Virus record (IMG/VR): IMGVR_UViG_3300031950_000001
Location: 32,001-96,000 of that record
DNA length: 64,000 bases
Strand: one strand, 5' to 3'
Origin: a virus
Of the stretch, positions 312 through 26,855 are shown piece by piece. The position numbers and the translations under genes were made by a program. Below the pieces are notes generated by a model. The model saw nothing but the letters and a program-made list of their open reading frames with translations. It did no database searches and had not been told where the DNA came from. Position 1 is the stretch's first letter, and each line of letters opens with the position of its first letter.

Positions 312-572
312 ATGCTGATCGCAGACTTTCGTACCGGTAAAATGACCAAACTGGCCATTGATTGGAAGGGTCTTTTCTCTGTTCTAATGTCGGGCGCGGT
401 AGGTGGAATTGGCGGACTCGGCGCTGGCGGTCTTATTGACCTACTCCGTGGAGACGGAACGCAGGACTATACCAAAACGCTCGGACTAATCGGTCTGATT
501 AGCGGTCTTGGTTATGGCGGCGCCAGAAAGCTGCTTGAGTATTTATTTAGTGATCATAAGGAGGAAAAATAA
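312..572 (+). CDS. Leader-family A protein (short; leader plus glycine-zipper hairpin)
   Basis: Starts MLIADFRTGKMTKLA, followed by two GxxxG-rich hydrophobic helices. Confidence 0.85.
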   Translation: MLIADFRTGKMTKLAIDWKGLFSVLMSGAVGGIGGLGAGGLIDLLRGDGTQDYTKTLGLIGLISGLGYGGARKLLEYLFSDHKEEK

Positions 573-575
573 GGG

Positions 576-830
576 GTGTTGATATTCGACTTTCGTACCG
601 GCAAAATGACTAAGAGGGCGTTCGACTTTGTCGATTTCGTCGATATTGTCGTGCCTGCGTTGAAAGGAGGCATATATGGGCTTATTGGACTAGTGCTTGG
701 CGATATTATCGATCAGCACATTGGTACCAGAAATCGATGGGCCACGATTCTTGGTCTTACGGGCTTGATCGCAGGTTTGGGCATTGGAGGGTACAGCCGC
801 TACTTAGCTCGGCGACACTTAGAGCAATGA
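576..830 (+). CDS. Leader-family A protein (short)
   Basis: Starts MLIFDFRTGKMTKRA, followed by GxxxG helices and the RWATILGLTGL motif. Confidence 0.85.
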   Translation: MLIFDFRTGKMTKRAFDFVDFVDIVVPALKGGIYGLIGLVLGDIIDQHIGTRNRWATILGLTGLIAGLGIGGYSRYLARRHLEQ

Positions 831-910
831 CGTTCAGACTGGACGGTAGTGCTTAGCTGTGAAGAGCGTAGGTTACTAGATGGCTAAGCTCTTTCCGAGA
901 TTCGAAAAAA

Positions 911-2242: not shown

Positions 2243-2267
2243 ACGAAGTCGAAAGCTGTTTTCAAAT

Positions 2268-2457
2268 TTTATCTTCGTCAGTCCCTGATAGCACTGTACG
2301 GTCCAGAACGAAACTTACCGAACGAAGAAGCGGCTGAAAGGGAATTTCAACCAGTGATAGAGTTGTTTAAGCAGACTAACATCGGAGAGATTCAGAGGGC
2401 GCTAGAAAATCCATTTTCCCTTTTAACTGAATCACCCTAGAAAAGGGGGTAATTATC
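2268..2457 (+). repeat. Intergenic direct repeat R1, copy 1 (coding remnant plus RBS region)
   Basis: Near-identical to 3323-3510 and partly to 4603-4696. Confidence 0.85.
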
Positions 2458-3285
2458 ATGCGAATCCTTGACTTTCGCGCTGGCAAAATGACGAAACGGG
2501 GGTTAGACCTTGGTGATGTTGGTGATGTTCTTTCCGTGGTAGGACCGGGAGCATTGTTTGGTATCGGTGGTGCAGGGCTTGGTAGTATCATTGATATGCT
2601 AGCCGGCACTAAACGTCGATGGACCACGATTCTTGGCCTGACAGGATTGGCTGGAGGCGTTGGGCTTGGAAGTACAGGTCTATTTAAGTCCTGGTTCGCA
2701 GCAGAACGAGGGCCTGAGTTCCCCAAGAAACTAAGTGACATCCCAGCTTATGCTAAGATCTTCCGCTATATCGTATTTATGCGAGCAGATCCGAGTGCAT
2801 TCAAAGGCTCTGATCATCCTATATTTCGACGCCTCCCTGAGATGGATGGAGAGCAGCTGTATTGCCATCTTACGCAGCTGGGGATTGCTCCGAACACGCT
2901 TCCGGGGTATAGAGCGAATCCGTATGTCCATAACGTGGCGGCAAACCTAGTTTCTCCTACCGACCCGCGACAGTTTGCAATTCTACATGCGGCGCATTTC
3001 AACCTGGAAGTTGTGCCGTTACAACTGTGCTGGAACGAGCTTGATGCAAACCAGCGCAACCGACTATTTTCGTCTCTCGGTGCGTATAGGGAGAAATTGG
3101 CTTTAAACGCCAACGACCCTACAATCAGCAAGGAAGCCGATAACGAGTTTAATAAACTAGTAAAGCAACTTATAGAGTACGGGAAAAAAGAGCATGCAGA
3201 TGCACTACGAATATTGCACCAGCAGCATCAAATGGACGTCCAAGAATTTGCTCAACAAATTCAGCAAGTTAAGCAACGACCGTAA
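2458..3285 (+). CDS. Leader-family A protein
   Basis: Starts MRILDFRAGKMTKRG, then glycine zipper and a variable C-domain. Confidence 0.85.
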   Translation: MRILDFRAGKMTKRGLDLGDVGDVLSVVGPGALFGIGGAGLGSIIDMLAGTKRRWTTILGLTGLAGGVGLGSTGLFKSWFAAERGPEFPKKLSDIPAYAKIFRYIVFMRADPSAFKGSDHPIFRRLPEMDGEQLYCHLTQLGIAPNTLPGYRANPYVHNVAANLVSPTDPRQFAILHAAHFNLEVVPLQLCWNELDANQRNRLFSSLGAYREKLALNANDPTISKEADNEFNKLVKQLIEYGKKEHADALRILHQQHQMDVQEFAQQIQQVKQRP

Positions 3286-3322
3286 TGACATTAAAGAACC
3301 CTGATTCATTATCACGATTTCT

Positions 3323-3510
3323 TTTATCTTCGTCGGTTCCTGATAGCATTGTACGATCCAGAGCGAAATTCACTGAACGAAACAGCGGCCGAGAAGGAAT
3401 TTCAACCAGTGATAGAGTTGTTTAAGCAGGCTAACATAAGAGAGATTCAGAAGGCGCTAGAAAATCCGCTTTCCCTTTTAACTGAATCACCCTAGAAAAG
3501 GGTAATTATC
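3323..3510 (+). repeat. Intergenic direct repeat R1, copy 2
   Basis: Near-identical to 2268-2457. Confidence 0.85.
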
Positions 3511-4293
3511 ATGCGAATCCTTGACTTTCGTACCGGCAAAATGACGAAACTGGCGTTAGACTTTGGTTATATTCCTGCTATGGCTATACCGGGAGTATTG
3601 TATGGTATCGGTGGTGCAGGGCTAGGTAGTCTCATTGATAGGCTAGCCGGCACTAAACGTCGATGGACCACGATTCTTGGTCTGCTAGGATTGGCCGGAG
3701 GTGCTGGGGCTGGAGGGTTGCTCCGATATCTGGATGAGCGCTCCAATACTCCTGAAGCGCAGATGCGTCGGTTCCTAACGAATGCAACGGCGCCGCCGTC
3801 TGATCAGTTTGTGCAACAGATGAGCGAGACCTTCCCATATATAGTTGAGACTTTCCGAAAGGCCGCTACCGAAAAGAAACCGAGCGATCTGATTCGTGGT
3901 CTTATCTGGCCATTATACGAGGAAGGCGGAATTTGGCTTTATAACCCGAGTGCCAGCGAGTTCCAACTTATCCTCTATTTCGCTTCTAAAACGCGAAACC
4001 ATGAGATGATACTACCTGCAATTGATCTTGCAACGGATATAGCTGCGCAAGGTCGGTTGCTTTCGCGGTATCAGGAATGGATTCCGGAGAATTTACGGCC
4101 AGAGATAGAGAACCACTTTAGGAACTATGTGAATGCGACTATCGACTATGTCGAAGGTAAGACGCCGGATCCGAACGCGCCTAAATTATATCTTGACAAG
4201 TTGGTGAAACTACTCAAGGATACAAATAAAAAAGAGCTTATAGAAATTGCGGATCTGATCAGACAACCACGTAAGGTTCTACAACAACAGTAA
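3511..4293 (+). CDS. Leader-family A protein
   Basis: Starts MRILDFRTGKMTKLA. The C-domain is paralogous to 5155-5922 (GRLLSRYQ..IPE.LRPEIE.HF.NY). Confidence 0.85.
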   Translation: MRILDFRTGKMTKLALDFGYIPAMAIPGVLYGIGGAGLGSLIDRLAGTKRRWTTILGLLGLAGGAGAGGLLRYLDERSNTPEAQMRRFLTNATAPPSDQFVQQMSETFPYIVETFRKAATEKKPSDLIRGLIWPLYEEGGIWLYNPSASEFQLILYFASKTRNHEMILPAIDLATDIAAQGRLLSRYQEWIPENLRPEIENHFRNYVNATIDYVEGKTPDPNAPKLYLDKLVKLLKDTNKKELIEIADLIRQPRKVLQQQ

Positions 4294-4297
4294 ACAA

Positions 4298-4503
4298 GAA
4301 CGGGAATACTGATAACGATCAAAATTTTGATTCCGGAATCAAATTTCGATGATGGTTCCGGAATACGCCAATGGTGCGGGCTGATATAGCCCGTTTTTCG
4401 TGGTCTTGGCCGTGAGAGTATTAGGTCAACCTGATTAAGTTATTCATCTCGGCGCCAAATGCGCACAAATTCATGTTAATACTCGATTTTCGTACCGGCC
4501 GAT
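4298..4503 (+). repeat. Intergenic direct repeat R2, copy 1
   Basis: Near-identical to about 5928-6135. Includes the 18-bp palindrome and the first 10 leader codons. Confidence 0.85.
4326..4343. repeat. Dispersed palindrome TTTGATTCCGGAATCAAA
   Basis: Exact 18-bp palindrome, intergenic. Confidence 0.95.
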
Positions 4504-4607
4504 ATAACAGAATTCAGCCCGAAGGCTACGATCCAGATCCCGTAGACTACCAAGCTGCTAGCCAAGCTGCTATAATAAAATCTGTACCGTCCAAACCGAC
4601 GAAGTGA
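4473..4607 (+). pseudogene. Deleted or chimeric leader-family A remnant
   Basis: MLILDFRTGR is fused directly to GYDPDPVDYQAA (compare GYDPDVLDFQVA in 5155-5922). 44 aa. Confidence 0.7.
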
Positions 4608-4696
4608 TAGAGTTGTTTAAGCAGGCTAACGTCGGAGAGATTCAAAGGGCTATAGAAATCCGTTTTCCCTTTTAACTGAATCACCCTAGAAAGGAG

Positions 4697-5144
4697 GTTA
4701 AAGCTGTTTTCAAATAACTAACTATACCGCTACAAACATACCAATAACACTTGACAAGAGACAAAGATGCGATATACTAATTGGTAAGGATTACCTGCTG
4801 GTCGACAGTGAAATAATCGAGGTTGACCGTCGTTCGGTATAGACACGGGCGTCAAGGCGTTAGCCGTTCTCTCAGATGGAAAGCGGTACGAGAACCAAGT
4901 ACTGCTACGCTCAAGACTGAGAAGTTGTCGACGCTACATCGACGGATATTTGAACGCCGCTCGGAACATTGAGCGGGAAGCGTTACGTTTGATCAACAGA
5001 GGCCGGAGTGGGTTCACGGACTCTCTAAACGGACGTGGACAGGACGTAAGACCCTTCGGGGCAGTCCTGGATGAAACGTCAAAATTGGCTGAAGAAAGGC
5101 AGCCTTCCATTCCTGCCGTGGTTTAGGCAGGTTTGGTAAACCAG
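4697..5144 (+). mobile_element. Complete non-autonomous IS607 derivative (448 bp), inserted at GGAG in the RBS of 5155
   Basis: Left end GTTAAAGCTGTTTTCAAAT and right end ...GGTAAACCAG match the full element. tnpA and most of tnpB are deleted. Confidence 0.92.
4751..4778 (+). promoter_or_regulatory. sigma70-like promoter in the left end of the IS607 derivative
   Basis: TTGACA-16 bp-TATACT. Confidence 0.6.
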
Positions 5145-5154
5145 GGTAACTATC

Positions 5155-5922
5155 ATGTTAATCCTTGACTTTCGCACCGGCAAAATGACGAAACTGGCGT
5201 TAGACTTTGGTGATGTTGCGTCCGTGGCGATACCGGGGGCGTTGTTGGGTCTCGGTGGTGTGGGGCTCGGTAGTCTAATTGATATGCTAGCCGGCACTAA
5301 ACGTCGATGGACCACGATTCTTGGTCTGACAGGACTGGCCGGAGGTGCGGGGCTTGGAGGATTGGGTCGATATCTGTATAAGCGCGATCCTACATATCAG
5401 ACGTTTGTGTTCCTAGATAAGGCATTCACGCCGGCGACTGAGTCGGATGTGCAGAAGAAGTTCGGTAACAACCCAGACGCGATTGCGGCGCACCAAACCC
5501 GAATCAATAACATGACGCCGACCGAACTGATTAATAGTCTTATCGAACCAATGTACAAGGACTTTTGGGGGTATGACCCGGATGTTCTCGATTTCCAAGT
5601 TGCCCGCTATCTCGTTTCTAAACAGGCCGATAACGCGAAATTAACCGCACTTAATATCGCCGTGGATATAGCGGTACGAGGTCGGTTGCTTTCGCGGTAT
5701 CAGAAACGGATTCCGGAGGATTTACGGCCAGAAATAGAGAAACACTTTATGAACTATGCGCGCGAAATGACCAATCAGTTCGCAAGTGCGAATCCAAATT
5801 GGGAAGTGCCTAAATCGCATCTTCAGACGTTGGTAGGGTTACTCGTGGCGACGAATCAAGAAGAGGTCGAAAAACTTGCGAAGCTAGTCGCAAATCCATA
5901 TAGCGTTCGGGATCAATCATAA
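5155..5922 (+). CDS. Leader-family A protein
   Basis: Starts MLILDFRTGKMTKLA, then glycine zipper. Confidence 0.85.
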   Translation: MLILDFRTGKMTKLALDFGDVASVAIPGALLGLGGVGLGSLIDMLAGTKRRWTTILGLTGLAGGAGLGGLGRYLYKRDPTYQTFVFLDKAFTPATESDVQKKFGNNPDAIAAHQTRINNMTPTELINSLIEPMYKDFWGYDPDVLDFQVARYLVSKQADNAKLTALNIAVDIAVRGRLLSRYQKRIPEDLRPEIEKHFMNYAREMTNQFASANPNWEVPKSHLQTLVGLLVATNQEEVEKLAKLVANPYSVRDQS

Positions 5923-5958
5923 AAAAACGAACGGGAATATTGATCGGTATCAAAAAAT

Positions 5959-5976
5959 TTTGATTCCGGAATCAAA
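5959..5976. repeat. Dispersed palindrome TTTGATTCCGGAATCAAA
   Basis: Exact copy, within repeat R2 copy 2. Confidence 0.95.
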
Positions 5977-6105
5977 TTTCGATGATGGTTCCGGAATACG
6001 CCAATGGTGCAGACCGATATAGCCCGTTTTTCGTGGTCTTGGCCGTGAGAGTATTAGGTCAACCTGATTAAGTTATTCATCTCGGCGCCAAATGCGCACA
6101 AATTC

Positions 6106-6918
6106 ATGTTAATACTCGATTTTCGTACCGGCCGAATGACCAAGTTTGCTTTGGAATGGCGCGGGCCGCTTGTTGATTGGCAAGGACTGGCTCGTGACTG
6201 GGGGTTGATCGGGCTACTGACCCTTGGCGGACTCGGCGTCGGCAGTCTTGTTGATTGGCTTCGCGATCGAAAGCTCTTTAGTGACGTCTCAAAACGAATT
6301 TTGTTGCTAAGCTTAGCGGTGGGATCGGTCGCTACGCTCGGCCGTTTTATGAATCAAAATATTTGGCTATATTTGCGGAAACGGAAACCGCTGGAAGGCC
6401 AAGGAAAAGAAATCGCGGACAAACATATCGAATTTGCCGCAAAATTACTAGAATTGCATAAAAGCGCGGCGAACGGATCAGCACAGATCAAGGACCCAGG
6501 ATTGCCAGTTGATATGACATTGAGTGAGATCGTCCGCGCAGGCAAGACGGGTGATCATCGATTCCTCGACGCGATTCAGAAGGTTTTGCAAAGTACGCGT
6601 TATAACCTGGATCAGGATTATAAAAACGCCGTCGATGATCTACTAAACTCCGTCGCGTTCTGGCATCTAATGCAAGCCATGCTTTCGAAAGTGCCGCCAA
6701 ACCACCCGATACGACAGACAATCAACCAGAAAATGGATCGCTGTATGCTTGATCCGCGCGTCGCGCGACAAGCGGAAGTTGAATCGATGAAGGCCGATCT
6801 TAGCGCCTTACAAATTCCCAATGCGCACGCTACAGTAGAGACGTTATTCTCGAATCCAGATGCGTTTATACAATCATGGCCGCAAATGTCGGCTAAACTC
6901 TTTGAACAGACAAAATAG
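6106..6918 (+). CDS. Leader-family A protein (divergent)
   Basis: Starts MLILDFRTGRMTKFA, then two hydrophobic helices and a unique C-domain. Confidence 0.85.
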   Translation: MLILDFRTGRMTKFALEWRGPLVDWQGLARDWGLIGLLTLGGLGVGSLVDWLRDRKLFSDVSKRILLLSLAVGSVATLGRFMNQNIWLYLRKRKPLEGQGKEIADKHIEFAAKLLELHKSAANGSAQIKDPGLPVDMTLSEIVRAGKTGDHRFLDAIQKVLQSTRYNLDQDYKNAVDDLLNSVAFWHLMQAMLSKVPPNHPIRQTINQKMDRCMLDPRVARQAEVESMKADLSALQIPNAHATVETLFSNPDAFIQSWPQMSAKLFEQTK

Positions 6919-15051: not shown

Positions 15052-17232
15052 ATGAGCAGCTACATGAAAAGCAAAGCTCTGCTTCAGAAACTGGCCGGCC
15101 TGAAAGGCGTTAAACGGGCTGACGACCTTTCGAGCACGAACGAGTTCGAGAAGGCATTCTCGAATCTCGCCCTGGCTGTTACGATGGACCAATTTCCGCA
15201 ACTATCTGAGCGGATTCTTGGTTTCCAGACTATCGAAAAAAGCGAAGACGAGCGCAAAGCCGTCGGCGTACTGGGTCTGGATCTAGGCGGAAAGCTGGCC
15301 CTAGCGCCGTTTTTCTTCAATAAAGGCGAGCTTGTTGGCAGCGAACTTCTGTGGTTGGCGGATGGGAACGTCTTTGTGCCCAAGATTCCTGAATGGATCG
15401 ACCATCTTGTAATGCATCACAATATGCCGATGGGCACCCTTATTTCCGAAAATATCCGCCCGATTCAGCCAACAATGGATTTTCTGCGCTTCCTTCCCAC
15501 AAAAGCGGCAAGCGCAGATTGGCTCGTTAATTACCTGCCCGATATTGCGTATGCGCGACTGCATCCGCCGGGACTTAAGGGCGTCGACCTTGAGGGGGCT
15601 ATCCGTCGCAATCCTGCGCTTGCGAAGGCGTTCATTAAGCTCAGTGAAGCGTGGCCTGCAATTAAGCTCTATAAGCAATACGGTGTCCAGAGACTTCTCA
15701 ATGTTGCTGAAGAGTCGGCCCAGCGGGGTGAATCGGTTCTTTATGAACCGATCAAACGACAACGAGTAAAAACGGCCGCAGTTGAGATTATTACCAATCT
15801 CGACGTAGATGACCCCCGGCTCTCGGTCGAAGATCGCCTGAAAATCAAGAAAGACGGTTATCTCGTCATCGACCGACGGAAATCTTTTGCCAAATATGCA
15901 AAAGTCGAGGACGTTGAAGCCACCGTTCGAGAACAGATTCAAGTAAACGTAACCGAGCCGGGCGTCTATAAAGTATTGTCGGAAAAGGACGGAAAGTTCC
16001 ACCGTGCCCTGGTTATCCCGTATCGTGCCGATCTACGAAACGACCGTGCGCGTAAGCCCGATTTTTACCCGACAAGATACGAAACGGACCGTCTATCTAA
16101 GGTTTACGTGAAGTTTCTCGATGGCGACGAGGAGTACATGTGCCATCCGCAAGACGTAGCCGTTCTTGTGGGAAGCAAGGAGAGCGACGAGGCGTTTCAG
16201 CGAGCGCTTAAGAACAATAGTGTTTCCGCTAAGAAGACGTCGGGCCGTCACCTTATTGTTGATAAATCGGGCAACGTCATCCATGTTTTTCAGTATGATG
16301 ACGAGCTTGTACTCGCCGACGGCGACCGTCCGGGGCAGGAAGTCGTCGTTATCATTACCGAGACGCCTACGGGTAATATTGTGTTCGGCCGTAAGCGGGT
16401 GTTCGTTCCGCCGGATGCGCGGATGATCAATCTTGCCAAAGTCAAACAAAAATCCCCTTCTGGGGGGCCTGATCTCCTCGCTAAACGGGTAGCAAATGGC
16501 GATTTTGATCAACTTACGGTCATTAAATTCAATGACGATCATTTCGCCATCAACGGTCGGCACAAAAACAAGCGGGAAGCCGTTAGTGAGCTTCTCATCG
16601 TTTACGGTCTTAATGAGAAAGGGGCTGAGGAAATCCTCCGTACATCCCGCTCCAGTGGAACTCGGTGGATTGTCTCAAAGACTGCCGAGCAGATTTCGCT
16701 CGATCCCAAGCTTACGCCTGCACCCGGTTTTGTCGAACCTGCTGGCGTTCCTGATATGTTCCTGGGTTCTCAAACCCCTACAAAGCCGGCTCTTTCATAT
16801 ATGGTTTCTGTATCCTCGGTCAGAGGAATTATGCCTGTTCGTCGGCGGGCGAACGAGCCGATCAACCCTGAGCTTGTAAAAGCCGTCCAAGAGGCCGCCC
16901 AAACCGGCCAGAAAGAAGTTTTCGATACAACTACGCTTTCGTCCTTGCTTTCCATTGCCGATGACCGGGAGATTATCGACAAGCATCTTCCCGACGTCCT
17001 CCAGGCGGTTGATGCTCTTGGGCGTATCCTCTTTGCGTTCTATTGGCATAGCGACGAGTTTGAACGGCGCTATGGTCAATATGACGTCGAACGGATCAAG
17101 AATATGCTCTCGGCGCAGTTCAAACAGCTTGGGAAACTGTCGGTTATGCTCAAGGAACAGCAGCAAACGGCAATGACACGCCATATCGATGAGGGTACTG
17201 GTGAATTTGGTTCGGCTAGGGAATTAGGATAA
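15052..17232 (+). CDS. Large probable virion head/core protein (K-x-A rich)
   Basis: 726 aa, first large gene of the structural module. Has KLA, KRA, KAA, KTA and KYA motifs. Confidence 0.7.
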   Translation: MSSYMKSKALLQKLAGLKGVKRADDLSSTNEFEKAFSNLALAVTMDQFPQLSERILGFQTIEKSEDERKAVGVLGLDLGGKLALAPFFFNKGELVGSELLWLADGNVFVPKIPEWIDHLVMHHNMPMGTLISENIRPIQPTMDFLRFLPTKAASADWLVNYLPDIAYARLHPPGLKGVDLEGAIRRNPALAKAFIKLSEAWPAIKLYKQYGVQRLLNVAEESAQRGESVLYEPIKRQRVKTAAVEIITNLDVDDPRLSVEDRLKIKKDGYLVIDRRKSFAKYAKVEDVEATVREQIQVNVTEPGVYKVLSEKDGKFHRALVIPYRADLRNDRARKPDFYPTRYETDRLSKVYVKFLDGDEEYMCHPQDVAVLVGSKESDEAFQRALKNNSVSAKKTSGRHLIVDKSGNVIHVFQYDDELVLADGDRPGQEVVVIITETPTGNIVFGRKRVFVPPDARMINLAKVKQKSPSGGPDLLAKRVANGDFDQLTVIKFNDDHFAINGRHKNKREAVSELLIVYGLNEKGAEEILRTSRSSGTRWIVSKTAEQISLDPKLTPAPGFVEPAGVPDMFLGSQTPTKPALSYMVSVSSVRGIMPVRRRANEPINPELVKAVQEAAQTGQKEVFDTTTLSSLLSIADDREIIDKHLPDVLQAVDALGRILFAFYWHSDEFERRYGQYDVERIKNMLSAQFKQLGKLSVMLKEQQQTAMTRHIDEGTGEFGSARELG

Positions 17233-17239
17233 GTAGACC

Positions 17240-17647
17240 ATGAAGCTCCATGAAATTCGACGTAGTTCGGTAACAGGGAATGCTCTCGAAGTAGGCCAAG
17301 CGGCATCATCAGTTGTTTTTGCGATACCCGTTCCTGCCGAAGGTATCGTTCGACGCTTTTCTCTTGCTGCCGAAACGACGCAGGATATGCCTACAATTAC
17401 CGGCGTGAATCTCTATGATGATAGTCCGTCCGGGACAAATTCGGCCTTCAATCATGCTAGCAAGGTTATTCCCACCCAAACGTCGGCTCCTGCCCAATAT
17501 ATAGGACAGGCGGCCTATTCGTTAACGTCTCGTCGTGCGCAGTATGGCGGTCAGTTGTACGTCGAAGTTACAGCCGGTTCTAATATCCCGGCAGGGGCTA
17601 AGTTTGCTCTTTCGCTTGTGATTCAAGTCGGTGGCGCAATCATGTAG
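17240..17647 (+). CDS. Small beta-rich probable virion protein
   Basis: 135 aa, rich in Ala/Ser/Thr/Val, in the structural operon. Confidence 0.65.
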   Translation: MKLHEIRRSSVTGNALEVGQAASSVVFAIPVPAEGIVRRFSLAAETTQDMPTITGVNLYDDSPSGTNSAFNHASKVIPTQTSAPAQYIGQAAYSLTSRRAQYGGQLYVEVTAGSNIPAGAKFALSLVIQVGGAIM

Positions 17648-17651
17648 GCCT

Positions 17652-18422
17652 ATGATCGACAACGAATTCACAAAGTCCCAGCTCTGGAGACCGCCAGATT
17701 GGCGTTGGAAAAGGGCGCAAATGCTGAAGGATGTCGCTAACCTCCCCCGAACGGAGGATAACGACAACTATGTCCTTCTTGCCATCGATTACTTAAGTGG
17801 CAAGCAGACGGCCGAGCAGATCATGGCCGAAAAGATTTACTCAAAAGAGATTCTCGCGTCAGTAAAGTGGGAAGTAGAAGCCAGATTAATCGCCGGTCAG
17901 ACAGATCAAGAAATCGCTTCTCGGTTAGCGACATCCCCAGATGTAATACGGTTTTATGAAGCATGGTTTTATAATATAAGAGATAGACTTGACAACTATA
18001 GTTATATCTTTCAACGACTGATATACCCCATTGTAGAGGTGGTCGACGGTAAGCCATCCAGGGAGGCTGTCTGGAAGTTTTTTGCCTTTTGTGGCGGTTC
18101 CGGCGTTATTGATGAAATTATTTACGACAGCAATATTCTACGTGGCTTGTCGACCAAGAACTTCTGGAAGCAGAATCTTGCGCACACCGTCCTACGTCGG
18201 TTGGCTGTCAAGGCCAAATTTAACGAAGACTTCCTGGATCGTAATGTAGATCGTTTGCTAAGCTCCGTTTCGGAAGAAGGCAAGAAGCGTGAAGGAGACG
18301 AGCTTCACAAGGTTCTTGTCAGTACGATGACGAGTTTGGGGTGGAACTGGGGGGATAAGAAGCTGATCGAACACATGCCGGATGGGCCCAATTTCGAAAA
18401 TACGAATCCGGAGTCAAATTAA
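17652..18422 (+). CDS. Hypothetical protein with possible HTH
   Basis: ATG at 17652. GQTDQEIASRLATSPDVIRFY resembles an HTH. Confidence 0.7.
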   Translation: MIDNEFTKSQLWRPPDWRWKRAQMLKDVANLPRTEDNDNYVLLAIDYLSGKQTAEQIMAEKIYSKEILASVKWEVEARLIAGQTDQEIASRLATSPDVIRFYEAWFYNIRDRLDNYSYIFQRLIYPIVEVVDGKPSREAVWKFFAFCGGSGVIDEIIYDSNILRGLSTKNFWKQNLAHTVLRRLAVKAKFNEDFLDRNVDRLLSSVSEEGKKREGDELHKVLVSTMTSLGWNWGDKKLIEHMPDGPNFENTNPESN

Positions 18423-18423
18423 G

Positions 18424-19779
18424 ATGTCGGTCAAAAAGCTAACATCCGAAACCAAGGAAAAGATCGCGCATATTACCAGCGAGCTTGTCGACAGCGTCGA
18501 GATGGGCGAAGACCCGAAGGCAGCCGCCATTAAGCTCGCCAAAGCGTACGATCTGACAAAAGATCAAATCCGAATGGTCGTTCGAGCCTATAATACGGCG
18601 GCATCGTTGGCCCAGCTAGAGGAATTTGACAAACGAGCCGAAGTTCCACGCGTCATTAACGCAGAAGCGGTTGTCAAAGCTGTCTTTGGAGGCAAGCGGA
18701 CCAAGGTCGCAAGCCAAGAAGTACAAGAAAAGCCGCAAGTGGTTTCCTCCGACTGGTCTCTTCCCGTACAAGCGGTGGTCCGAACTGATACGCCGATTCG
18801 TACCAGCCGTATCATCAAGTTCGCGACAGTTGACCGTCCTAAGCCGGAACCGAAAGATAACACTCCGTTTCTTGCTCAACAAGCTCGCAAAGAAGCGGCT
18901 GTTGTAAAGCTGGCCGCAGAACGTCGTTTCGTCGACGCGATTCAGCAGCTTGCGGAATATTTTTCCGTAACTGGAGCAATTGATCCGAAAATTGCGGAAC
19001 AGAACGCGGTTGCGGCTTTTGGTAAAGATAGTAAAACGATCATCAAATCAGCCCTTGATTTTGCAGGACTAAAGAAAAAACCCATTTATTCTAATAACCC
19101 TGTTTTTGATCCGCAAAAGCCCCCTTACAATCTAATCAAACAGGCCGTTGATGCCTGCAATGACTATCTGCAGGCCGTTAAGACCGAAAAGCTGGCCGAT
19201 GAAGTTGCTCCAAAGAAGAAAAAGCTCGATCTTGCCAACCTCCGGAAGCCGATCTACGGAACGATCTTTCCCGAACTTGAGCCCGAACGTTGGCAGACCA
19301 TCTTTCCTGAATTAGAGTTTGGAAAGGAGGCCGCAGCCAAGACCGGAATTAATATATCTCCGTTTGGACCGACCGCGCAGACGTTGGCCCTTGGTTTAGG
19401 GGAAGTGTTCGGTCATCCTCGAGAATCGGTTGTTAAACCGACCGACGTTACGATGAATATTGAGGCTACAACATTACGAACAAAGAGCTACCTTATTCAT
19501 TTGATGGCCAATGACCCTGTTATAAGCAAATATCCGCCTGAAGAGGTGGTTAAAGTTTATAACGCCCTTAGTCGTCTAGCGCCGAGAGCAATGCAGCAGC
19601 CGAACGTAATTGTTATGTACCTTCGGATTGCACTACAGTCTGGAGGCTCGTTGGATAATTTCCACACCAATTCGCTTGTGGCGATAAATCGCGAATTAGA
19701 CCGGGTAGCGACGGGAATTTCATCCGGCGCATTTTCGCTCGCCGAACGCGGCACGGGCGAATCAGAGGAGGCCGCATAA
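18424..19779 (+). CDS. Probable prohead core protein (K-x-A rich)
   Basis: ATG at 18424. Repeated KIA, KAA, KLA, KRA, KVA, KFA, KEA and KQA. Confidence 0.7.
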   Translation: MSVKKLTSETKEKIAHITSELVDSVEMGEDPKAAAIKLAKAYDLTKDQIRMVVRAYNTAASLAQLEEFDKRAEVPRVINAEAVVKAVFGGKRTKVASQEVQEKPQVVSSDWSLPVQAVVRTDTPIRTSRIIKFATVDRPKPEPKDNTPFLAQQARKEAAVVKLAAERRFVDAIQQLAEYFSVTGAIDPKIAEQNAVAAFGKDSKTIIKSALDFAGLKKKPIYSNNPVFDPQKPPYNLIKQAVDACNDYLQAVKTEKLADEVAPKKKKLDLANLRKPIYGTIFPELEPERWQTIFPELEFGKEAAAKTGINISPFGPTAQTLALGLGEVFGHPRESVVKPTDVTMNIEATTLRTKSYLIHLMANDPVISKYPPEEVVKVYNALSRLAPRAMQQPNVIVMYLRIALQSGGSLDNFHTNSLVAINRELDRVATGISSGAFSLAERGTGESEEAA

Positions 19780-19815
19780 ACAACCCTCCTTTTTTGACCA
19801 GAAAGGTTTAAAACA

Positions 19816-20079
19816 ATGCTCTGCTACGAGGCTATTATGAAGATCGCTGCGTTGCTAAAAGAAGCTCGTAAATCAAAGCATTTTGAGGAAAAGGACTATC
19901 CGGAAAAGGCAAAAGAGATTTATCGTGCTCTGAAACGCGAACACGGCGAAGAGATGCCTGCCGAAGTCAAGGCTCGAATAGCCCTTGCGAGAGCCAAAGG
20001 AAAGAAGCCTGGTAGTAAACCTACAGGACCGATACATTATCGTTGGAGCCGTAGTAAGAAGAAATATGTGTCGAAATAA
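19816..20079 (+). CDS. Small basic protein
   Basis: 87 aa, Lys-rich, with KIA and KEA near the N-terminus. Confidence 0.7.
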   Translation: MLCYEAIMKIAALLKEARKSKHFEEKDYPEKAKEIYRALKREHGEEMPAEVKARIALARAKGKKPGSKPTGPIHYRWSRSKKKYVSK

Positions 20080-20125
20080 CATTTTCGGTTGTCGCGAGCA
20101 ATTTAGCAAAAAATAGGACAAAACG

Positions 20126-21583
20126 ATGGCGACTGATCCTATAAAGCTGATACGGCGACATCGCATAAAACACGCCGCGGAGCCGGCCGGGCCTGCTGAT
20201 CAAAGTGAACCGACGCTACAGGTCGGGCCTCCAGCCCCAAGGAACCTCGGGCCAGAACCGCCGCCTGATGCGCCTGCCTCGGGCGCTGCACCGCCGACGG
20301 GCGTGCGCGGATTTATGGATGCAGTCGTCCCGCCCGCTCTCGCATTAGGTGCGACAGGGATATTAATTGGAACATTATTTGATCGAAAACACGGGCTTTT
20401 TGCAGGAACGACGGCGGCATTAGGGCTTCTGGGAACGGCTATTGGCGCTGGTTGGGGTGCTTTGCAAGCCGGCGGCGGCACCGGCGGCACTGGTGGTCTT
20501 TCAGATGTTATGATACGCGGCATTGGGCGTATGTTTGGCTTCGGCGACCAGTCAGGAGAGCCTTCACAAGGGTGGGGAGAAAGTCTAGCCCCGTGGGTTC
20601 GATGGTTGTCGCCAGTTGGTGGCGGTGGTGTCGGTTTTTTCCTTGGAAGCGGCCTCGGTAGCCGTCTATATAAACGATTCGCCTATCCGCGCGGGCTAAA
20701 GAAATTCAATTTATATATACCCCATCCGACGCACGTACGACGATTTGATTCATTTATCGATATGGTAATAGATACATTGCAAAGTCGCGGGGCCGTACTA
20801 AAGCACGCTATAGATAGGCTTAACAATAAGGCGTCATTACTTGTTGACCAAGCTAAGCAACTAGATCAGCTGTTGCGCGCGCGAATTCAGACTAAGATGA
20901 AAGGGATGTCCGATTTAGCATACCGCGTAACAAGTCAGAAGGAGCCATTATACGAACATGCGATATCGCAAAAAACCGTAGTGCGGCAACAACCCGTATT
21001 CGAGTCGCCTGTGTTAATAACGAACAACGCAACGCTTGTAAGCGACGCTTTGGCGGCAAACAAAGAAGTACGACTCAGAATGGCGACACGCGAGTTCTTG
21101 TCTTGTCTTGGGCCTGGGGATATTAATCCATTAGAGTTCGAAAAGTGTAAAGATGTTCTAAAAGCGATTGCAAAAGACCACGGGCTCGAAGGAAGCGAGA
21201 AAAGAATTTTCGACAGTGCGAGTGATCAAATAGCGGCTGCACGTAGAAGTTGGTTCCGGAACAGGACTGATGCAGAGGCGCTTGAACACGCAAAACAAAG
21301 TATCGACGTTGGTCGCGCCGAAAGGACTGCGCAGAAGCGTCTCAGCAAAGCACTTCGCGCTCTTGAGCAGCAACTCGATGCGACCGCCCGCGATATCAGC
21401 GTGCTTGAGCGGTGTAAGCGACGCTTGCCCAACATAAAGTCTCCGCCAAAATGGCCCGGATGGACAGGTGGCTTGGGTGTGGGGGCGGCAGGCGTGGTGC
21501 TGGGTGAATTCGCTGGTCCGTTGGTGGCAGATTGGCTTATGCCTCCGCATCCCGTGCGCTCTCTACAACAACCTATAGATTAG
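20126..21583 (+). CDS. Glycine-zipper-containing probable internal virion protein
   Basis: Basic N-terminus ending in KHA, a Pro-rich linker, several GxxxG hydrophobic helices and a coiled coil. Confidence 0.7.
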   Translation: MATDPIKLIRRHRIKHAAEPAGPADQSEPTLQVGPPAPRNLGPEPPPDAPASGAAPPTGVRGFMDAVVPPALALGATGILIGTLFDRKHGLFAGTTAALGLLGTAIGAGWGALQAGGGTGGTGGLSDVMIRGIGRMFGFGDQSGEPSQGWGESLAPWVRWLSPVGGGGVGFFLGSGLGSRLYKRFAYPRGLKKFNLYIPHPTHVRRFDSFIDMVIDTLQSRGAVLKHAIDRLNNKASLLVDQAKQLDQLLRARIQTKMKGMSDLAYRVTSQKEPLYEHAISQKTVVRQQPVFESPVLITNNATLVSDALAANKEVRLRMATREFLSCLGPGDINPLEFEKCKDVLKAIAKDHGLEGSEKRIFDSASDQIAAARRSWFRNRTDAEALEHAKQSIDVGRAERTAQKRLSKALRALEQQLDATARDISVLERCKRRLPNIKSPPKWPGWTGGLGVGAAGVVLGEFAGPLVADWLMPPHPVRSLQQPID

Positions 21584-21730
21584 TTTTCGCGTTTACATTG
21601 TGCGCATTCAAGCATAATATACGAGGCGGGAACGGGCGCTTGCCGTTATCGTTCGTCTTATAACAGCTGCTAGGCGTCGAATCTCTCGGTGGGTAGATTC
21701 TAGTAAATTCGGAAGAGCCGAAAGATACCC

Positions 21731-23137
21731 ATGCTAAAAATCATTCCTCCCAATAGCCAAACCTTTGACGAGCCTCCCGTCTATGCCGTAAAGATGGCGT
21801 CGAAAGGTCTTACGGGAGAGGATCGAAAAAGCTTTGTCAAACGGGCGGCTGCCTATTTTATTGACGTATTACAGAAATCGCCACCAAAATCCGGTGAAGT
21901 GCCTATCCATGTTATCGCCCTCGGCGATGGCGAGCATTTCGGGCCAAATCGTAACGGCGACTATTTCCCGTCGGAAACATGTGAACGCGATCATTCTACT
22001 TTTACCAAATTTGCCTATTTTTACCGTTCTCACATCAATAAAAACCCCCGTCGCAGTTATGGGATCGTAAAGGCTTCTTATTACAACAAGCCAGCAGGTC
22101 GGATTGAACTTCTTGTTTATCTTAATGGTACTAAAGAGGCTGCCGAGCGTAATCAAGGCCTTGTTGCCGATGAGGAGCTTGAACTCCTCCATAAGGGGGA
22201 AGATATCCCCGTCAGCATGGCAACCAGGGTACCTTATGACGTCTGCTCGGGCTGCGGCAATAAAGCCCGGACCCGACTTGAATACTGCACTCCCGCCCGA
22301 TGCGTGAAATATGGCGGACTCCGTAGCAATATTGGTAAAACCTTCGATGACGGCCATACGCTGTGTGCGATAAACCCCGTTTGTGAGTGGTTTGATATTT
22401 CCCACGTCATTCGACCGGCGGATAGGATTGCCTATTCCATTGCGGTTTATTCCGAACTTACCAAGCAGGCTAACGAAGATGGAACAGTCGTTTCTGGGGC
22501 CGAGCTAGCCGAAAAGATAAAGCTTGCCCTTCCGACGTGGTATATCGATGCGCTTCCTTCGCCGATAGTCAGAAAGCAGTACCAAGCCCTTAAAACGCTC
22601 ACTGAGATCGAAAAAACAGCGGCGTTTGACCTCTCCTATGCTACTAAATTGGCCGAAATCTCGAAAATTGCTAAAAGCGGTCATCCGGTGCCCTCAAAAA
22701 ACATTGACAAACAGAACTTCCTTATCTCCTTAGGCCAAATGGGAGTAATGCTCCCCCCGAAAGTATGGGCCGATCTGTTTGGAGCTCCCGATTTTTCGTC
22801 GTATTTGCCCGGGAGTTTCACAAAGCTATCCCAACAGAGCGATGTAGTTTCTATAATAGAAAGTAATCCGTATATTTCGACCCAAAGCGTCAAAGTTGCC
22901 GGTTCCGTTGATATTCGTCCTATCGTTTCCTGTTACTCGATAAAGCCGTTTGAATTCGCGATTAAGACGGCCAGTTATAGCCCCCATTACGTAACCCTGG
23001 AGAAGGAGGCCGATGAGCGATTGGGGCAGGTTTTAGCCAGGGAATACGCCCTATATCAATTGGCCGTTCTTTCAAATTACGTTGATAGTCCAGATTTCCG
23101 GAAAATGGCAGCCATTGCCGTTTCCGTACAGTTTTAA
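21731..23137 (+). CDS. Probable prohead maturation protease
   Basis: Lies just upstream of scaffold and capsid genes. Has NRNGDYF, YRSH, VSMA..YDVCSGCGN and FDISHV motifs resembling phage head-maturation serine proteases. The C-terminal half is full of K-x-A. Confidence 0.65.
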   Translation: MLKIIPPNSQTFDEPPVYAVKMASKGLTGEDRKSFVKRAAAYFIDVLQKSPPKSGEVPIHVIALGDGEHFGPNRNGDYFPSETCERDHSTFTKFAYFYRSHINKNPRRSYGIVKASYYNKPAGRIELLVYLNGTKEAAERNQGLVADEELELLHKGEDIPVSMATRVPYDVCSGCGNKARTRLEYCTPARCVKYGGLRSNIGKTFDDGHTLCAINPVCEWFDISHVIRPADRIAYSIAVYSELTKQANEDGTVVSGAELAEKIKLALPTWYIDALPSPIVRKQYQALKTLTEIEKTAAFDLSYATKLAEISKIAKSGHPVPSKNIDKQNFLISLGQMGVMLPPKVWADLFGAPDFSSYLPGSFTKLSQQSDVVSIIESNPYISTQSVKVAGSVDIRPIVSCYSIKPFEFAIKTASYSPHYVTLEKEADERLGQVLAREYALYQLAVLSNYVDSPDFRKMAAIAVSVQF

Positions 23138-23164
23138 AAAATTTGATTCCGGAATCAAATTTTT
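23137..23164. repeat. Dispersed palindrome (core 23142-23159)
   Basis: 28-bp perfect palindrome at the protease stop codon. Confidence 0.95.
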
Positions 23165-23193
23165 AAGAGTAGCTGTGTTGGGTGTTTCTTATA

Positions 23194-23202
23194 TGCTATA
23201 AT
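23194..23202 (+). promoter_or_regulatory. Extended -10 promoter for the scaffold/capsid operon
   Basis: TGCTATAAT about 50 bp upstream of GGAGGAG-ATG. Confidence 0.55.
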
Positions 23203-23251
23203 AAAAAATTGAAAAACGAGCGTTTCGCGGATTTCATTTGGAGGAGCAAAT

Positions 23252-24460
23252 ATGACCAAATCTTTGCAAGAAATCACCGATCTCCTTCGTCAAGTGATTG
23301 AAGGGAAGGTCAAGAAAGCATCGGTTGGTGACGACGCGGATGACAGAACCCGAGAGCATAAGCCCGGCGATTTTGCCGACGAGCTTTTGCAGGAAAACAA
23401 GGAAACGATTCCCTCGGGTACCGCCAGCTATGACGAGGAAGAACCAGTGGACACGGATGAAGACAAAGAAGAGGAAACCACCGAGGGTGCTGAAAACCTT
23501 TTGGCTGGTCCTAGCGGCTATGAAGGTGTTCCGGAACCTGAGGATAAACCTAAAGACGTCTCCACCTCTTCCGGGCTTAGCGTCGAGAAACAGAGTGCAG
23601 TCAAAAAGGCTAGTACTAATGAACTCGCCGAAGCCGCAGTTCATTACGCTGCCCGCATTGCAGGCTTCTTGAAAGAGGCCGCGGAGGATAGTGGTTATCT
23701 TCTCAGCGAGATTTCGCCTACGGTTCTTTCGCGCCTTGTTGCCAGCAAAGTCGTCGAGGAGGCACGAGCTCGGGCGAATCTCGTCGGTGCCATTTTGCAT
23801 AGCGTAAAGCTTGCGCAAGATGCGGCTGAAGAAGAGGAAGAAGGGAAAGAAAAGAAGAAAAAGATGCCCACGGACGAATATGAGGAGACCGAAGAATCTG
23901 AGAACGAGCCCCCAAAAGTCAAAGTAAAAGAGCCCGAGGAAACGCCCGAAGAGACCGCTGAAGAGCCTTCCAACGTTCCCGTTATTCCCGCCGAAGATAT
24001 CGATAGGCTTGTTGATGCTCTTTCGGATCTCGTTCGTGCTGAAGAGGCTGCGGGCCGTTCGGGAGCACCTCGAGGCCTTGAGCCTGGCACTGAGGAAGAA
24101 CCGAGCGAGGAAGACGAAGAAGAAAAGGGTCAAATCCTCGAACGGCTTCTGAGCGAAGCTCCTGCGCCGGCTGCGGAGGAAGAGAAGAAAAAAGAGGAAG
24201 AAATTAAACGCGCCAGCGACGAGGAAATTCTCTCGGCGACTCTAGATGCGCTTCTTGCTCGTGGTGAAAGCCTGACTGATCTGGCTTCTAAAGGCGGCCG
24301 GATTGGATATCAATTGGCGAAATGCGCTGAAGCGCATTTGCGAAGCCGTCGATATGTTCCGCTTTCGCGATTGCCCGCAGAAAAACGGGCTCGTGCTCGT
24401 CGGTTGCGAGACCACGTTGAAGATTTCATTTCCGATCTGTACAATAAAAGTAGGAACTAA
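23252..24460 (+). CDS. Acidic scaffold-like protein
   Basis: Very Glu-rich, located between protease and capsid genes. Has KKA twice, KEA, KLA and KRA. Confidence 0.7.
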   Translation: MTKSLQEITDLLRQVIEGKVKKASVGDDADDRTREHKPGDFADELLQENKETIPSGTASYDEEEPVDTDEDKEEETTEGAENLLAGPSGYEGVPEPEDKPKDVSTSSGLSVEKQSAVKKASTNELAEAAVHYAARIAGFLKEAAEDSGYLLSEISPTVLSRLVASKVVEEARARANLVGAILHSVKLAQDAAEEEEEGKEKKKKMPTDEYEETEESENEPPKVKVKEPEETPEETAEEPSNVPVIPAEDIDRLVDALSDLVRAEEAAGRSGAPRGLEPGTEEEPSEEDEEEKGQILERLLSEAPAPAAEEEKKKEEEIKRASDEEILSATLDALLARGESLTDLASKGGRIGYQLAKCAEAHLRSRRYVPLSRLPAEKRARARRLRDHVEDFISDLYNKSRN

Positions 24461-24478
24461 GCAGAGGAGACATCAAAT

Positions 24479-24859
24479 ATGGCAGACATTGTAAAATATG
24501 CCGAAGCTCTTCAGCTCGTTGTCCGCGAGCTTGCCAATCGAGCCAGTGGCTACGTCGAAAAGCAAGCTGCCGTGACGAAACGAGTTCCGGAGGTGATTGA
24601 TACCCTTGTCGCGAACTCGTTTATCACGGTTAACCAAAAAGACGTGGCGGCAAAACTCTTAAGCACACACGAAGGTAGCCTCGAAATTATCGAGCGGATG
24701 GCTAAAAAGGCAAGCGTTCGCCAATCTGGCGTTATTGGTGAAGCCGTAGGCGGTAGTTCCAGCACTCCTATCCGCCGAGTGGCCGTGGATCATATTCCTC
24801 GAATTGAGGATCTCCCGGCTGCGCAGGAGTTTGCTCAGCGGATTTTGTCTCGCGCATAA
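24479..24859 (+). CDS. Small head-assembly protein
   Basis: 126 aa with KYA, KQA and KKA, in the head operon. Confidence 0.7.
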   Translation: MADIVKYAEALQLVVRELANRASGYVEKQAAVTKRVPEVIDTLVANSFITVNQKDVAAKLLSTHEGSLEIIERMAKKASVRQSGVIGEAVGGSSSTPIRRVAVDHIPRIEDLPAAQEFAQRILSRA

Positions 24860-24900
24860 CGGTACATTAGACGAAAAACTCTAAGAAGGAGATTAAAACG

Positions 24901-25527
24901 ATGGCTAGACTGATCCTTCAAGCTTACGATCATGCATTGAATGTTGTGCGTGGGTGGAACCCGCCTACTCATTTGCAGAAGGTGGCGCCGGTTGATACCG
25001 CCCTCCTGCAGACGATTAGCACCTGGCCTGCAGGGCGTGTCGGGTTTGTTTCCGGTTCGGGCGCGAATGCGGGTACCGTGACTTTGGCTACGCCGACGAA
25101 CACCGCTGGTAACCCGATGCCTCTCTATCTGTTGCAGGGCGGCCAAGGCTACGATGTGGCGGATACCGGTGTTAACGCCGCCGGCAATCTGGTGCAGGTG
25201 AATACTGCCCCGGGCGGTGTTATTACGGGCCTTGTTGCTACAGGTGGTTTCGAGCTCCAGACCACCGAATACAAAACCGGCCAAGGTGTTAACTACAGTG
25301 TGAATACTCCTCTGACGGTTGCGCTTGATGCCAGTAACATCGGTGGTTTGCTTGCGCCGGGCACTTTCTATACGAACTGGATTTGCGGCGTGGCCTCTGT
25401 GCATTGGGGCTATGACTATCAGACCTACGGACCCGGTCAATATCCGACCAGTCCCGTTGGCGTGAACGCCATGAAACGCAACGTGCTGACGTTCTGGAGT
25501 TACTTCTTGCCGAAGTCCGGAAGCTAA
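24901..25527 (+). CDS. Probable capsid decoration/cement protein
   Basis: Gly/Thr-rich beta protein immediately upstream of the MCP. AAGGAG RBS. Confidence 0.6.
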   Translation: MARLILQAYDHALNVVRGWNPPTHLQKVAPVDTALLQTISTWPAGRVGFVSGSGANAGTVTLATPTNTAGNPMPLYLLQGGQGYDVADTGVNAAGNLVQVNTAPGGVITGLVATGGFELQTTEYKTGQGVNYSVNTPLTVALDASNIGGLLAPGTFYTNWICGVASVHWGYDYQTYGPGQYPTSPVGVNAMKRNVLTFWSYFLPKSGS

Positions 25528-25577
25528 TTCAGTCTGAGCAACTTAACTTCAACTAAGAATATAAGGAGACAGAGACT

Positions 25578-26540
25578 ATGGCAGATACTGTGGTCCAAAC
25601 CGGTGATCCCATTAAGGATTATCGACTTTTGAATGAAGCCTTGTTTAACCAACTGATGGGCGATCCTTATGAGAAGGCTGCCGCCCAGCAGGATCTGGAT
25701 AACTTCGTTCGGTTGATGGCTCGTGAAACCGGCGTTCAACGGCGCTTCCTGCCGTTCGTGCCGATCACCTCGGATCAACTCCATCCGCAAGTCAGCACGG
25801 ACGTTCCGGCAATCGTGCTGTTCAAAGAACCGAACAGCCCTGGCGCCGTGAGTATCGGTTACAATACGAACTCCAGCCAATGGTTCATCCATGGCGATCG
25901 GTACTTACTGACCTTCGCCCGTATCAAAAGCCCGACCTTCATGGGCGACAAGAGCCTCTTGAGCACCTATCAATACGATATCCGTCAAGTGATTGCCGAC
26001 CAAGCTGTCCTTGACGTCATGGCCCAAGAGGACTCTCGCTTCTTTGCCGCCGTGAATACGGTGCTTGGCAACACCGTTAACGGCGCAAGCCCGATGACGG
26101 GTGTTGTCCAGTACGTCGGGTATTCAGGCGGGCTGAACCGTGAAACCTTCGTGAGCTCGCTGCAGATTCTGCCCAGCACCCCCGCCCACTTCGAAACCCA
26201 GACGATTGTGATCAACAACGTTACCGCTAAAGAAATCCGTAAGTGGGACTTCATGGAAATGGGTGGTCAGCGGAGCCAGGAAGTGCTGCTGGGTGGTAAC
26301 CTGTATGATCAGTTCGAGGATATCAAATGGGTTATCACGATTAAGCGCCATCTGGTTCCCGATAACGAATGCTACCTGTTTGCGGATCCGCGAGGCCTCG
26401 GCAAGGCTTATAGCCGCGAAGAACTCACCATGTATGTCGAAGCCAAGGCTTGGCAGATTCTGTGGTTCTCCTATGAAGAAGTTGGCGCGGCGATCGTGAA
26501 CGGCTACTCCGTGGCCCGCGCGAAGTTCAATCATACGTAA
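25578..26540 (+). CDS. Major capsid protein (probable HK97 fold)
   Basis: 320 aa, strong RBS, codon usage suggesting high expression, canonical position. Has an ED..FF spine-helix-like segment and C-terminal YEEVGAAIVN...V. Confidence 0.75.
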   Translation: MADTVVQTGDPIKDYRLLNEALFNQLMGDPYEKAAAQQDLDNFVRLMARETGVQRRFLPFVPITSDQLHPQVSTDVPAIVLFKEPNSPGAVSIGYNTNSSQWFIHGDRYLLTFARIKSPTFMGDKSLLSTYQYDIRQVIADQAVLDVMAQEDSRFFAAVNTVLGNTVNGASPMTGVVQYVGYSGGLNRETFVSSLQILPSTPAHFETQTIVINNVTAKEIRKWDFMEMGGQRSQEVLLGGNLYDQFEDIKWVITIKRHLVPDNECYLFADPRGLGKAYSREELTMYVEAKAWQILWFSYEEVGAAIVNGYSVARAKFNHT

Positions 26541-26583
26541 TCTCCGTAAAATTCTGAGAAATTGATGTTCGAGGAGAGATAGT

Positions 26584-26850
26584 ATGCCCAGCCAAGAAAA
26601 GATTGCTCAAGCGTTGGGATATATCGAGCAGAACTATGCGGTGCCTGCGTACCTCCGTAGGCTTGCTGAACTCGGTATTATCCCTGAAAACCAAGCGGAA
26701 GTGAATCTCTTGGTTAAGATGGGAGAAGAGGCCGGCGAGCTCTTGCGGAAGTACGGCAACGCCGAAATGGAAAAGTCCGCAGCGGATGAATCCGCCTCGG
26801 TTGACCCTTATCTTTTAGATGCCGTTAAGACCATCTTTGGCCGAGATTAA
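26584..26850 (+). CDS. Small hypothetical head-associated protein
   Basis: GAGGAG RBS, with KIA and KSA. Confidence 0.7.
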   Translation: MPSQEKIAQALGYIEQNYAVPAYLRRLAELGIIPENQAEVNLLVKMGEEAGELLRKYGNAEMEKSAADESASVDPYLLDAVKTIFGRD

Positions 26851-26855
26851 CAAAT

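Follow-up and report, generated by a model that had tools for sequence, protein, structure and literature searches.

A putative prohead serine protease and a Lys-x-Ala motif that probably marks its substrates in an almost undescribed phage lineage

The window analysed here comprises 64,000 nucleotides (positions 32,001 to 96,000) of IMG/VR virus record IMGVR_UViG_3300031950_000001 and is part of a 144,055-bp uncultured phage genome. Its head module spans positions 15052-27074, where all real genes lie on the + strand, and includes an open reading frame (ORF) at 21731-23137; ORFs are named below by the window position of their start. ORF 21731 probably encodes a prohead serine protease whose substrates are marked by (L/F)-(E/V)-Lys-x-Ala followed by Ala or Ser, and the cut most likely falls after the Ala. 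Prohead proteases decide which proteins stay in the phage head, and in what form. To our knowledge, few prohead cleavage rules are known, namely those of T4, phiKZ/SPN3US, HK97, and the herpesviruses. From the fold of the protein, and from the enrichment, specificity, and conservation of the tripeptide Lys-x-Ala (K-x-A), we infer cleavage of the motif, by ORF 21731, at that bond.

The following features are assigned to ORF 21731, in window coordinates.

21731..23137, + strand: probable prohead protease fused to a C-terminal K-x-A-rich (scaffold-like) half, 468 amino acids (aa)
21770..22426, + strand: protease domain, aa 14-232, assemblin fold in the predicted structure
22031..22033, + strand: codon of His101, candidate catalytic His, invariant in 33 homologues
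22214..22216, + strand: codon of Ser162 (VSMA motif), candidate catalytic Ser; S162 and M163 invariant in 33 homologues
22244..22303, + strand: four-Cys insertion, C172, C175, C186, and C191, all four invariant
22463..22471, + strand: K245-Q-A247, conserved site just after the catalytic domain; K and A each conserved in 97% of homologues

The AlphaFold2 model of ORF 21731, made with 33 homologues, has predicted local distance difference test (pLDDT) values mostly of 83-97 across residues 14-226. When it is compared with ~48,000 PDB representatives by VIA-align, the best match is T4 gp21 (5jbl; Z 10.7, 142/165 residues, root-mean-square deviation 3.4), and the proteases of varicella-zoster virus (VZV) and human cytomegalovirus (HCMV) are matched with Z 7.7 and Z 5.4, respectively. 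The top three Foldseek matches of the model are all 5jbl chains. Capsid maturation proteases of the assemblin fold include those of T4 (gp21, S77), HK97 (S78), phiKZ (S80), and herpesviruses (S21). Among the 33 homologues of ORF 21731, H101 precedes S162, the same His-then-Ser order as in T4 gp21 and the herpes proteases, and the two residues are candidate catalytic residues on the basis of their sequence conservation. The original prediction, that ORF 21731 is a protease with a role like that of T4 gp21 and with its Ser in VSMA, is thus supported by the assemblin/gp21 fold and by the invariance of S162 together with H101. As to the protease relationship itself, structure prediction gives the assemblin fold, and sequence profiles give no protease family.

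An invariant CxxC...C....C insertion (aa 172-191) lies between the strand of the catalytic Ser and the last strands of the protease domain. It is probably a zinc ribbon inside the domain, and weak zinc-ribbon Pfam matches are found in some members of the family. T4 gp21 is much shorter over this stretch and seems to have no counterpart to the ribbon.

ORF 21731 has more than 1000 homologues, ~40% identical, on contigs of 130-230 kb. In phage G the homologue is gp19, which is 30% identical and is annotated as a head maturation protease (PMC12484599). In two related loci (L072:7775-11131 and L075:7112-11005), the protease homologue lies within a much longer ORF (1118 and 1297 aa, respectively), which suggests a fusion with an upstream head protein. 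The protease gene adjoins the scaffold-like and major capsid protein (MCP) genes within the head module, and relatives, the cultured phage Arash, and phage G share the order protease, acidic scaffold-like ORF, small ORFs, and MCP.

K-x-A counts were compared with an expectation corrected for the composition of each protein, and p values were obtained by shuffling the protein. ORF 21731 has 14 K-x-A against 3.04 expected (p <= 2e-4), with K21 and K37 near the N-terminus, K93, K120, and K135 inside the domain, and nine from K245 on. The remaining named genes of the head module are as follows.

15052..17232, + strand: 726-aa K-x-A-rich head protein; 9 K-x-A against 4.4 expected (p 0.026); K13-x-A15 invariant in 36 orthologues
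18382..19779, + strand: 465-aa K-x-A-rich head protein; 13 against 4.95 (p 6e-4)
19816..20079, + strand: 87-aa basic ORF; K9-I-A11 and K15-E-A17 in the translation
20126..21583, + strand: 485-aa Gly-rich ORF; K15-H-A17; 2 against 2.8, no overall enrichment
23252..24460, + strand: 402-aa acidic, scaffold-like protein; 7 against 3.6 (p 0.058), including VKKAS twice and IKRAS
24479..24859, + strand: 126-aa head-module protein; 3 against 1.0 (p 0.06)
24901..25527, + strand: 208-aa Gly-rich protein upstream of the MCP; one site, K27-V-A29
25578..26540, + strand: MCP (PHROG 2522, E 1.6e-13); one site, K33-A-A35
26584..26850, + strand: 88-aa protein after the MCP; 2 against 0.7, alone not significant

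The DnaB-like ORF at 62270-63808 is not enriched (1 K-x-A against 1.6 expected). The original prediction had counted about 14 K-x-A in the 468-aa ORF (two N-terminal, nine after the domain), further copies in ORFs 15052, 18424, 23252, 24479, and 26584 and at the MCP N-terminus, and one in the DnaB-like protein. The counts and the layout agree with ours, the enrichment survives correction for composition, and the effect is stronger than claimed.

We then scored all residue pairs at spacings of 0 to 3 against per-protein composition (1224 patterns), comparing 13 head-module ORFs with the remaining 53 ORFs of the window. K-x-A ranks first of the 1224 patterns in the head module (56 against 24.4, z 6.4; runner-up z 3.7), whereas in the other 53 ORFs it occurs about as often as expected (62 against 56.9). 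In the same test, KA, KxxA, KxxxA, and AxK are all at expectation in the head module. The x-Glu motifs are likewise not enriched there ([LI]xE, 40 against 38.4; [SAG]xE, 68 against 63.1), and neither is [VLI]xA (83 against 80.3). K-x-A is also concentrated near N-termini: of the 12 ORFs between 15052 and 27074, 11 have it within residues 1-40 (2.5 expected; Poisson-binomial P 1.5e-7). As a positive control, the identical statistic was applied to T4 genes 20, 67, 68, 21, 22, 23, and 24, where IxE ranks first and LxE sixth of 1060 patterns. This is the experimentally known gp21 motif I/L-x-E, indicating that the statistic is able to recover real protease codes.

Across the whole 144-kb genome, just 5 of 168 ORFs reach Poisson P<0.05 for K-x-A, and three of them are ORFs 15052, 18382, and 21731. 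The fourth lies outside the window, directly after the gene of the large terminase.

Genome 107452-109227 (L082:2453-4228): large terminase (PHROG 675, E 7e-52)
Genome 109412-110581 (L082:4413-5582): 389-aa ORF after the large terminase; 10 K-x-A (3.0 expected), three of these within residues 1-41

The 389-aa ORF probably encodes a further head protein that is processed, at a distance from the main head module.

The motif extends to relatives of this phage. In 62 of 78 related IMG/VR loci, some of which are near-duplicates, no pattern ranks above K-x-A, and in ten more it ranks 2-9. When 15 diverse loci are pooled, K-x-A occurs 1018 times against 463 expected (z 25.8), and R-x-A, K-x-S, K-x-G, K-x-T, and E-x-A are not enriched. 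The signal is strict: Lys and Ala are not replaceable by R, S, or G. In the same pool, L-x-K and F-x-K are enriched, and the extended consensus is (L/F)-(E/V)-K-x-A-(A/S). In phage Arash, K-x-A is the top pattern (57 against 31.7) and is concentrated in gp220, gp222, gp223, and gp225, of which gp222 is the homologue of ORF 21731; in phage G and in Vibrio phage D69 it is the second-ranked pattern. The apparent exception L058 (16 against 13.3) is an artefact of long antisense ORF picks, and the L058 protease still has the motif. Six loci with distant, partial homologues (L076-L081; ~30% identity over ~115-215 aa) show no K-x-A enrichment and no clear alternative motif.

Selection on the motif was assessed against the closest relative, L004, whose protease is 76% identical, the expectation being set by how far K and A are conserved in the same proteins. 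Both K and A are kept at 41 of 52 sites, against 26.3 expected (p 2.5e-5). In the scaffold-like ORF 23252, all seven sites keep both residues (2.1 expected), yet P2 is only 43% identical. Across the family, the sites at K37, K93, K135, K245, and K425 of the protease and at K13 and K151 of ORF 15052 are fixed. Other protease sites turn over, and each homologue retains 5-11 in its C-terminal part (mean 8.2 against 2.1 expected). The ORFs at the scaffold position in 13 tabulated relatives have 7-13 K-x-A. Except for that of L004 they are unalignable to ORF 23252 by BLAST, and the unalignable ones have 9-13. These data support the view that K-x-A behaves, statistically and comparatively, like a protease cleavage motif.

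Several observations weigh against a protease that cuts at K-x-A. In Pfam, even at E up to 5, none of the 33 members of the ORF 21731 family matches a protease family. PDB sequence searches with ORF 21731 return no match, and comparing the family profile with the one sequence of T4 gp21 by hhalign finds nothing; in PHROGs the sole match is PHROG 2774, of unknown function, and no named family is hit. The conserved sites at K37, K93, and K135 and the window-specific site at K120 lie inside the folded catalytic domain, where cutting would be self-destructive, or such cutting may not occur. K-x-A sites lean only weakly toward low-confidence or disordered linkers. The capsid protein of phage G has no K-x-A, indicating that trimming of the capsid protein is not universal in the lineage. 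A literature search found no cleavage data for any member of the lineage, and the Arash proteome paper and its supplement give no peptide-level data from whose coverage cuts could be read.

Comparison with known systems places ORF 21731 closest to T4 gp21, its best structural match. The T4 maturation programme involves gp22, gp67, gp68, gp23, gp24, the internal proteins, and Alt. As in T4, the protease is encoded within the head module, ahead of the genes for the scaffold and the capsid protein, and the enzyme, the scaffold, and N-terminal leaders have more copies of a short P3-x-P1 motif than expected. Self-cleavage activates T4 gp21, which shreds the core (PMC9958956). In contrast to T4, where the motif is L/I-x-Glu, the motif here is Lys-x-Ala, with [LI]xE at expectation; no sequence similarity between gp21 and ORF 21731 is detectable, and ORF 21731 has the inserted four-Cys ribbon and a C-terminal half of ~220 aa. 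In SPN3US, many head and ejection proteins are cut at the three-residue motif A-x-E with a P1' Ser, propeptides contain several motif copies, and the protease gp245 auto-cleaves (PMC10052503). A three-residue motif in multiple copies in the head proteins is shared with the systems of SPN3US gp245 and phiKZ gp175, but their motif is (S/A/G)-x-Glu or A-x-E, and [SAG]xE is at expectation here. The herpesvirus assemblins (VZV, HCMV, Kaposi's sarcoma-associated herpesvirus, and herpes simplex virus) have the same fold, and there too the enzyme is fused to a scaffold-like C-terminal part. Herpesvirus cleavage sites are V/L/I-x-A followed by S, with P1 Ala and P1' Ser. This matches the Ala and the following Ala/Ser preference found here, unlike the cut after Glu of T4 and phiKZ. 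The P3 residue is hydrophobic in herpesviruses and Lys here, where [VLI]xA shows no enrichment. Herpesviruses have His as the third catalytic residue; the candidate catalytic residues here are His101 and Ser162. The literature search found no paper naming a Lys-x-Ala cleavage motif; the enzyme class and its logic are known, and the Lys-x-Ala specificity predicted from sequence would, as far as this search shows, be undescribed.

The position of the cut is assigned by analogy: because the studied enzymes of this fold cut after P3-x-P1 motifs (T4 L/I-x-E, SPN3US A-x-E, and herpes V/L/I-x-A), Ala is the likely P1 residue, and the small residue (Ala/Ser) that follows it suits the P1' position. It is unlikely that ORF 21731 recognises K-x-A and cuts in another register, for example after Lys with x-Ala at P1'-P2', but the sequence does not fix the bond, and the flanks (L/F two before Lys, E/V one before, and A/S after Ala) fit several registers. 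The HK97 protease, for its part, cuts after Lys103. Just as improbable is a binding or targeting motif that stays uncleaved, for example one by which head proteins dock to the scaffold or to the inside of the capsid. A tag would also fit the position near the N-terminus in 11 of the 12 head ORFs, and several sites lie inside helices of the folded protease, but K-x-A is densest in the protease tail and in the scaffold-like proteins, with a conserved copy precisely where the catalytic domain ends, a pattern like that of the T4 gp21 motif. Moreover, tripeptides whose middle residue is free to vary typically reflect protease subsites, not docking interfaces.

Cleavage of the motif by a different enzyme, either a host protease or another phage protease, is very unlikely, even though the link between ORF 21731 and the motif is inferential and phage 80alpha offers a precedent: in this staphylococcal phage, a host protease trims the capsid and scaffold proteins. 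The motif travels with the protease family across unrelated hosts (Salmonella, Vibrio, and the Gram-positive host of phage G) and across hot-spring and marine samples, which makes a shared host enzyme unlikely. We give still less credence to enrichment as a functionless by-product of Lys/Ala-rich helices or of shared ancestry. Head scaffolds are indeed helical and rich in K, A, and E, and related loci are not independent samples. However, the expectation is corrected for composition in each protein, KA, KxxA, KxxxA, AxK, RxA, and ExA are not enriched, the enrichment is common to proteins that BLAST cannot align, and the conservation of K and A, but not that of P2, exceeds background. The by-product explanation is already largely refuted by these results on spacing, specificity, unalignable ORFs, and selection.

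The Arash counterpart of ORF 15052, by gene order and size, is the virion protein gp218. ORF 15052 was considered as a portal, but Foldseek searches of PDB and BFVD with its AlphaFold2 model (pLDDT 63.5) returned neither a portal nor any other named fold, the best match being an uncharacterised phage protein; the ESM Atlas gave no match for ORF 15052 or ORF 18424. The true start of the 18382 ORF is probably M15, at 18424, and its orthologues in 63 loci have 9-17 K-x-A against 3-8 expected. ORF 19816 is possibly a small internal protein. The L004 homologue of ORF 20126 also has an N-terminal K-x-A, and the N-terminal K-x-A of ORF 24901 is found in only some orthologues. The ORFs of relatives at the positions of 24479 and 26584 have 4-8 K-x-A (1.2-2.4 expected) and 3-4 (~1 expected), respectively. 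The MCP is homologous to phage G gp27 (PDB 6wkk, E 1.6e-9). Its single K-x-A, K33-A-A35 in YEKAA (nucleotides 25674-25682), is the predicted maturation site, and all 27 aligned orthologues have K-x-A at about residue 25-35.

A family of genes with a shared peptide leader lies at the start of the window.

312..6918, + strand: gene family with the leader M-L-I-x-D-F-R-T-G-K-M-T-K-x-A; residue 15 is the Ala of K-x-A in 6 of 7 window copies

The leader varies in synonymous codons and the upstream DNA differs between copies, indicating that conservation is at the protein level. In the member at 2458-3285, the leader ends in K-R-G (MTKRGLD) instead of K-x-A. Like the capsid-targeting sequence of T4, this is a short shared N-terminal leader ending in the protease motif, but its sequence is unrelated and its roles in targeting and its removal are putative. 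The original prediction held that two leader families end in K-x-A. The MLIxDFRTGKMTKxA leader is a real peptide, while MIPESNF (39019, 47499, and 56339) is an invariant intergenic palindrome, TTGATTCCGGAATCAA, that gives false ORF starts when it is read from its TTG. The palindrome has 15 copies in the window, between genes, one of them (23146) directly after the protease gene.

Copies of palindrome TTGATTCCGGAATCAA: 39019, 47499, 56339, 4330, 5963, 6950, 9098, 10057, 14351, 14412, 23146, 28569, 35502, 52339, 62242

Two paralogues at genome 28135-28987 and 30574-31725 (-3157 to -2309 and -1426 to -275 in window coordinates) share another N-terminus, MGLVFNPNKFSSTKRAA, which likewise ends in K-x-A and may be a genuine second leader family.

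The further claim that an N-terminal K-x-A identifies capsid cargo holds poorly. Outside the head module, 40 of 156 ORFs have an N-terminal K-x-A against 21.9 expected (chance ~14%). A lone N-terminal K-x-A is a weak predictor, about half of such calls being due to chance, and ORFs 19816, 20126, 29677, and 38572 are therefore leads only.

By analogy with T4 and SPN3US, the product of ORF 21731 would be built into the prohead through its C-terminal half and would then activate. K245-x-A247 sits in a low-confidence linker (pLDDT ~50) directly after the catalytic domain, which is where a fusion of protease and scaffold would free itself, and it is the predicted self-release site. The enzyme would free itself there and degrade its own C-terminal half. 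It would shred the acidic scaffold-like ORF 23252 as well as ORFs 18382 and 24479, and it would take short peptides off the N-termini of the capsid protein (after A35), ORF 15052, and other head proteins. It would also remove the 15-residue leader of the MLIxDFRTGKMTKxA family.

We lean slightly towards a broader reading, in which a lineage that is very large and almost undescribed (its protease homologues number more than 1000, and Arash, D69, and G are among its members) has a protease with P3 Lys and P1 Ala, a specificity unreported for any phage, and shares the P1-Ala/P1'-Ser rule of herpes assemblin. The motif would then be an 'address and cut' code that predicts capsid-loaded proteins among the unknowns from sequence alone, including the fast-evolving leader-tagged family. 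If this is true, the assemblin fold gains a new specificity class that resembles the P1-Ala rule of the herpesviruses, and head cargo could be annotated by sequence in a lineage in which ~80% of genes are unknown. The short removable tag would also be a candidate for loading foreign proteins into the capsids of cultured members such as Arash.

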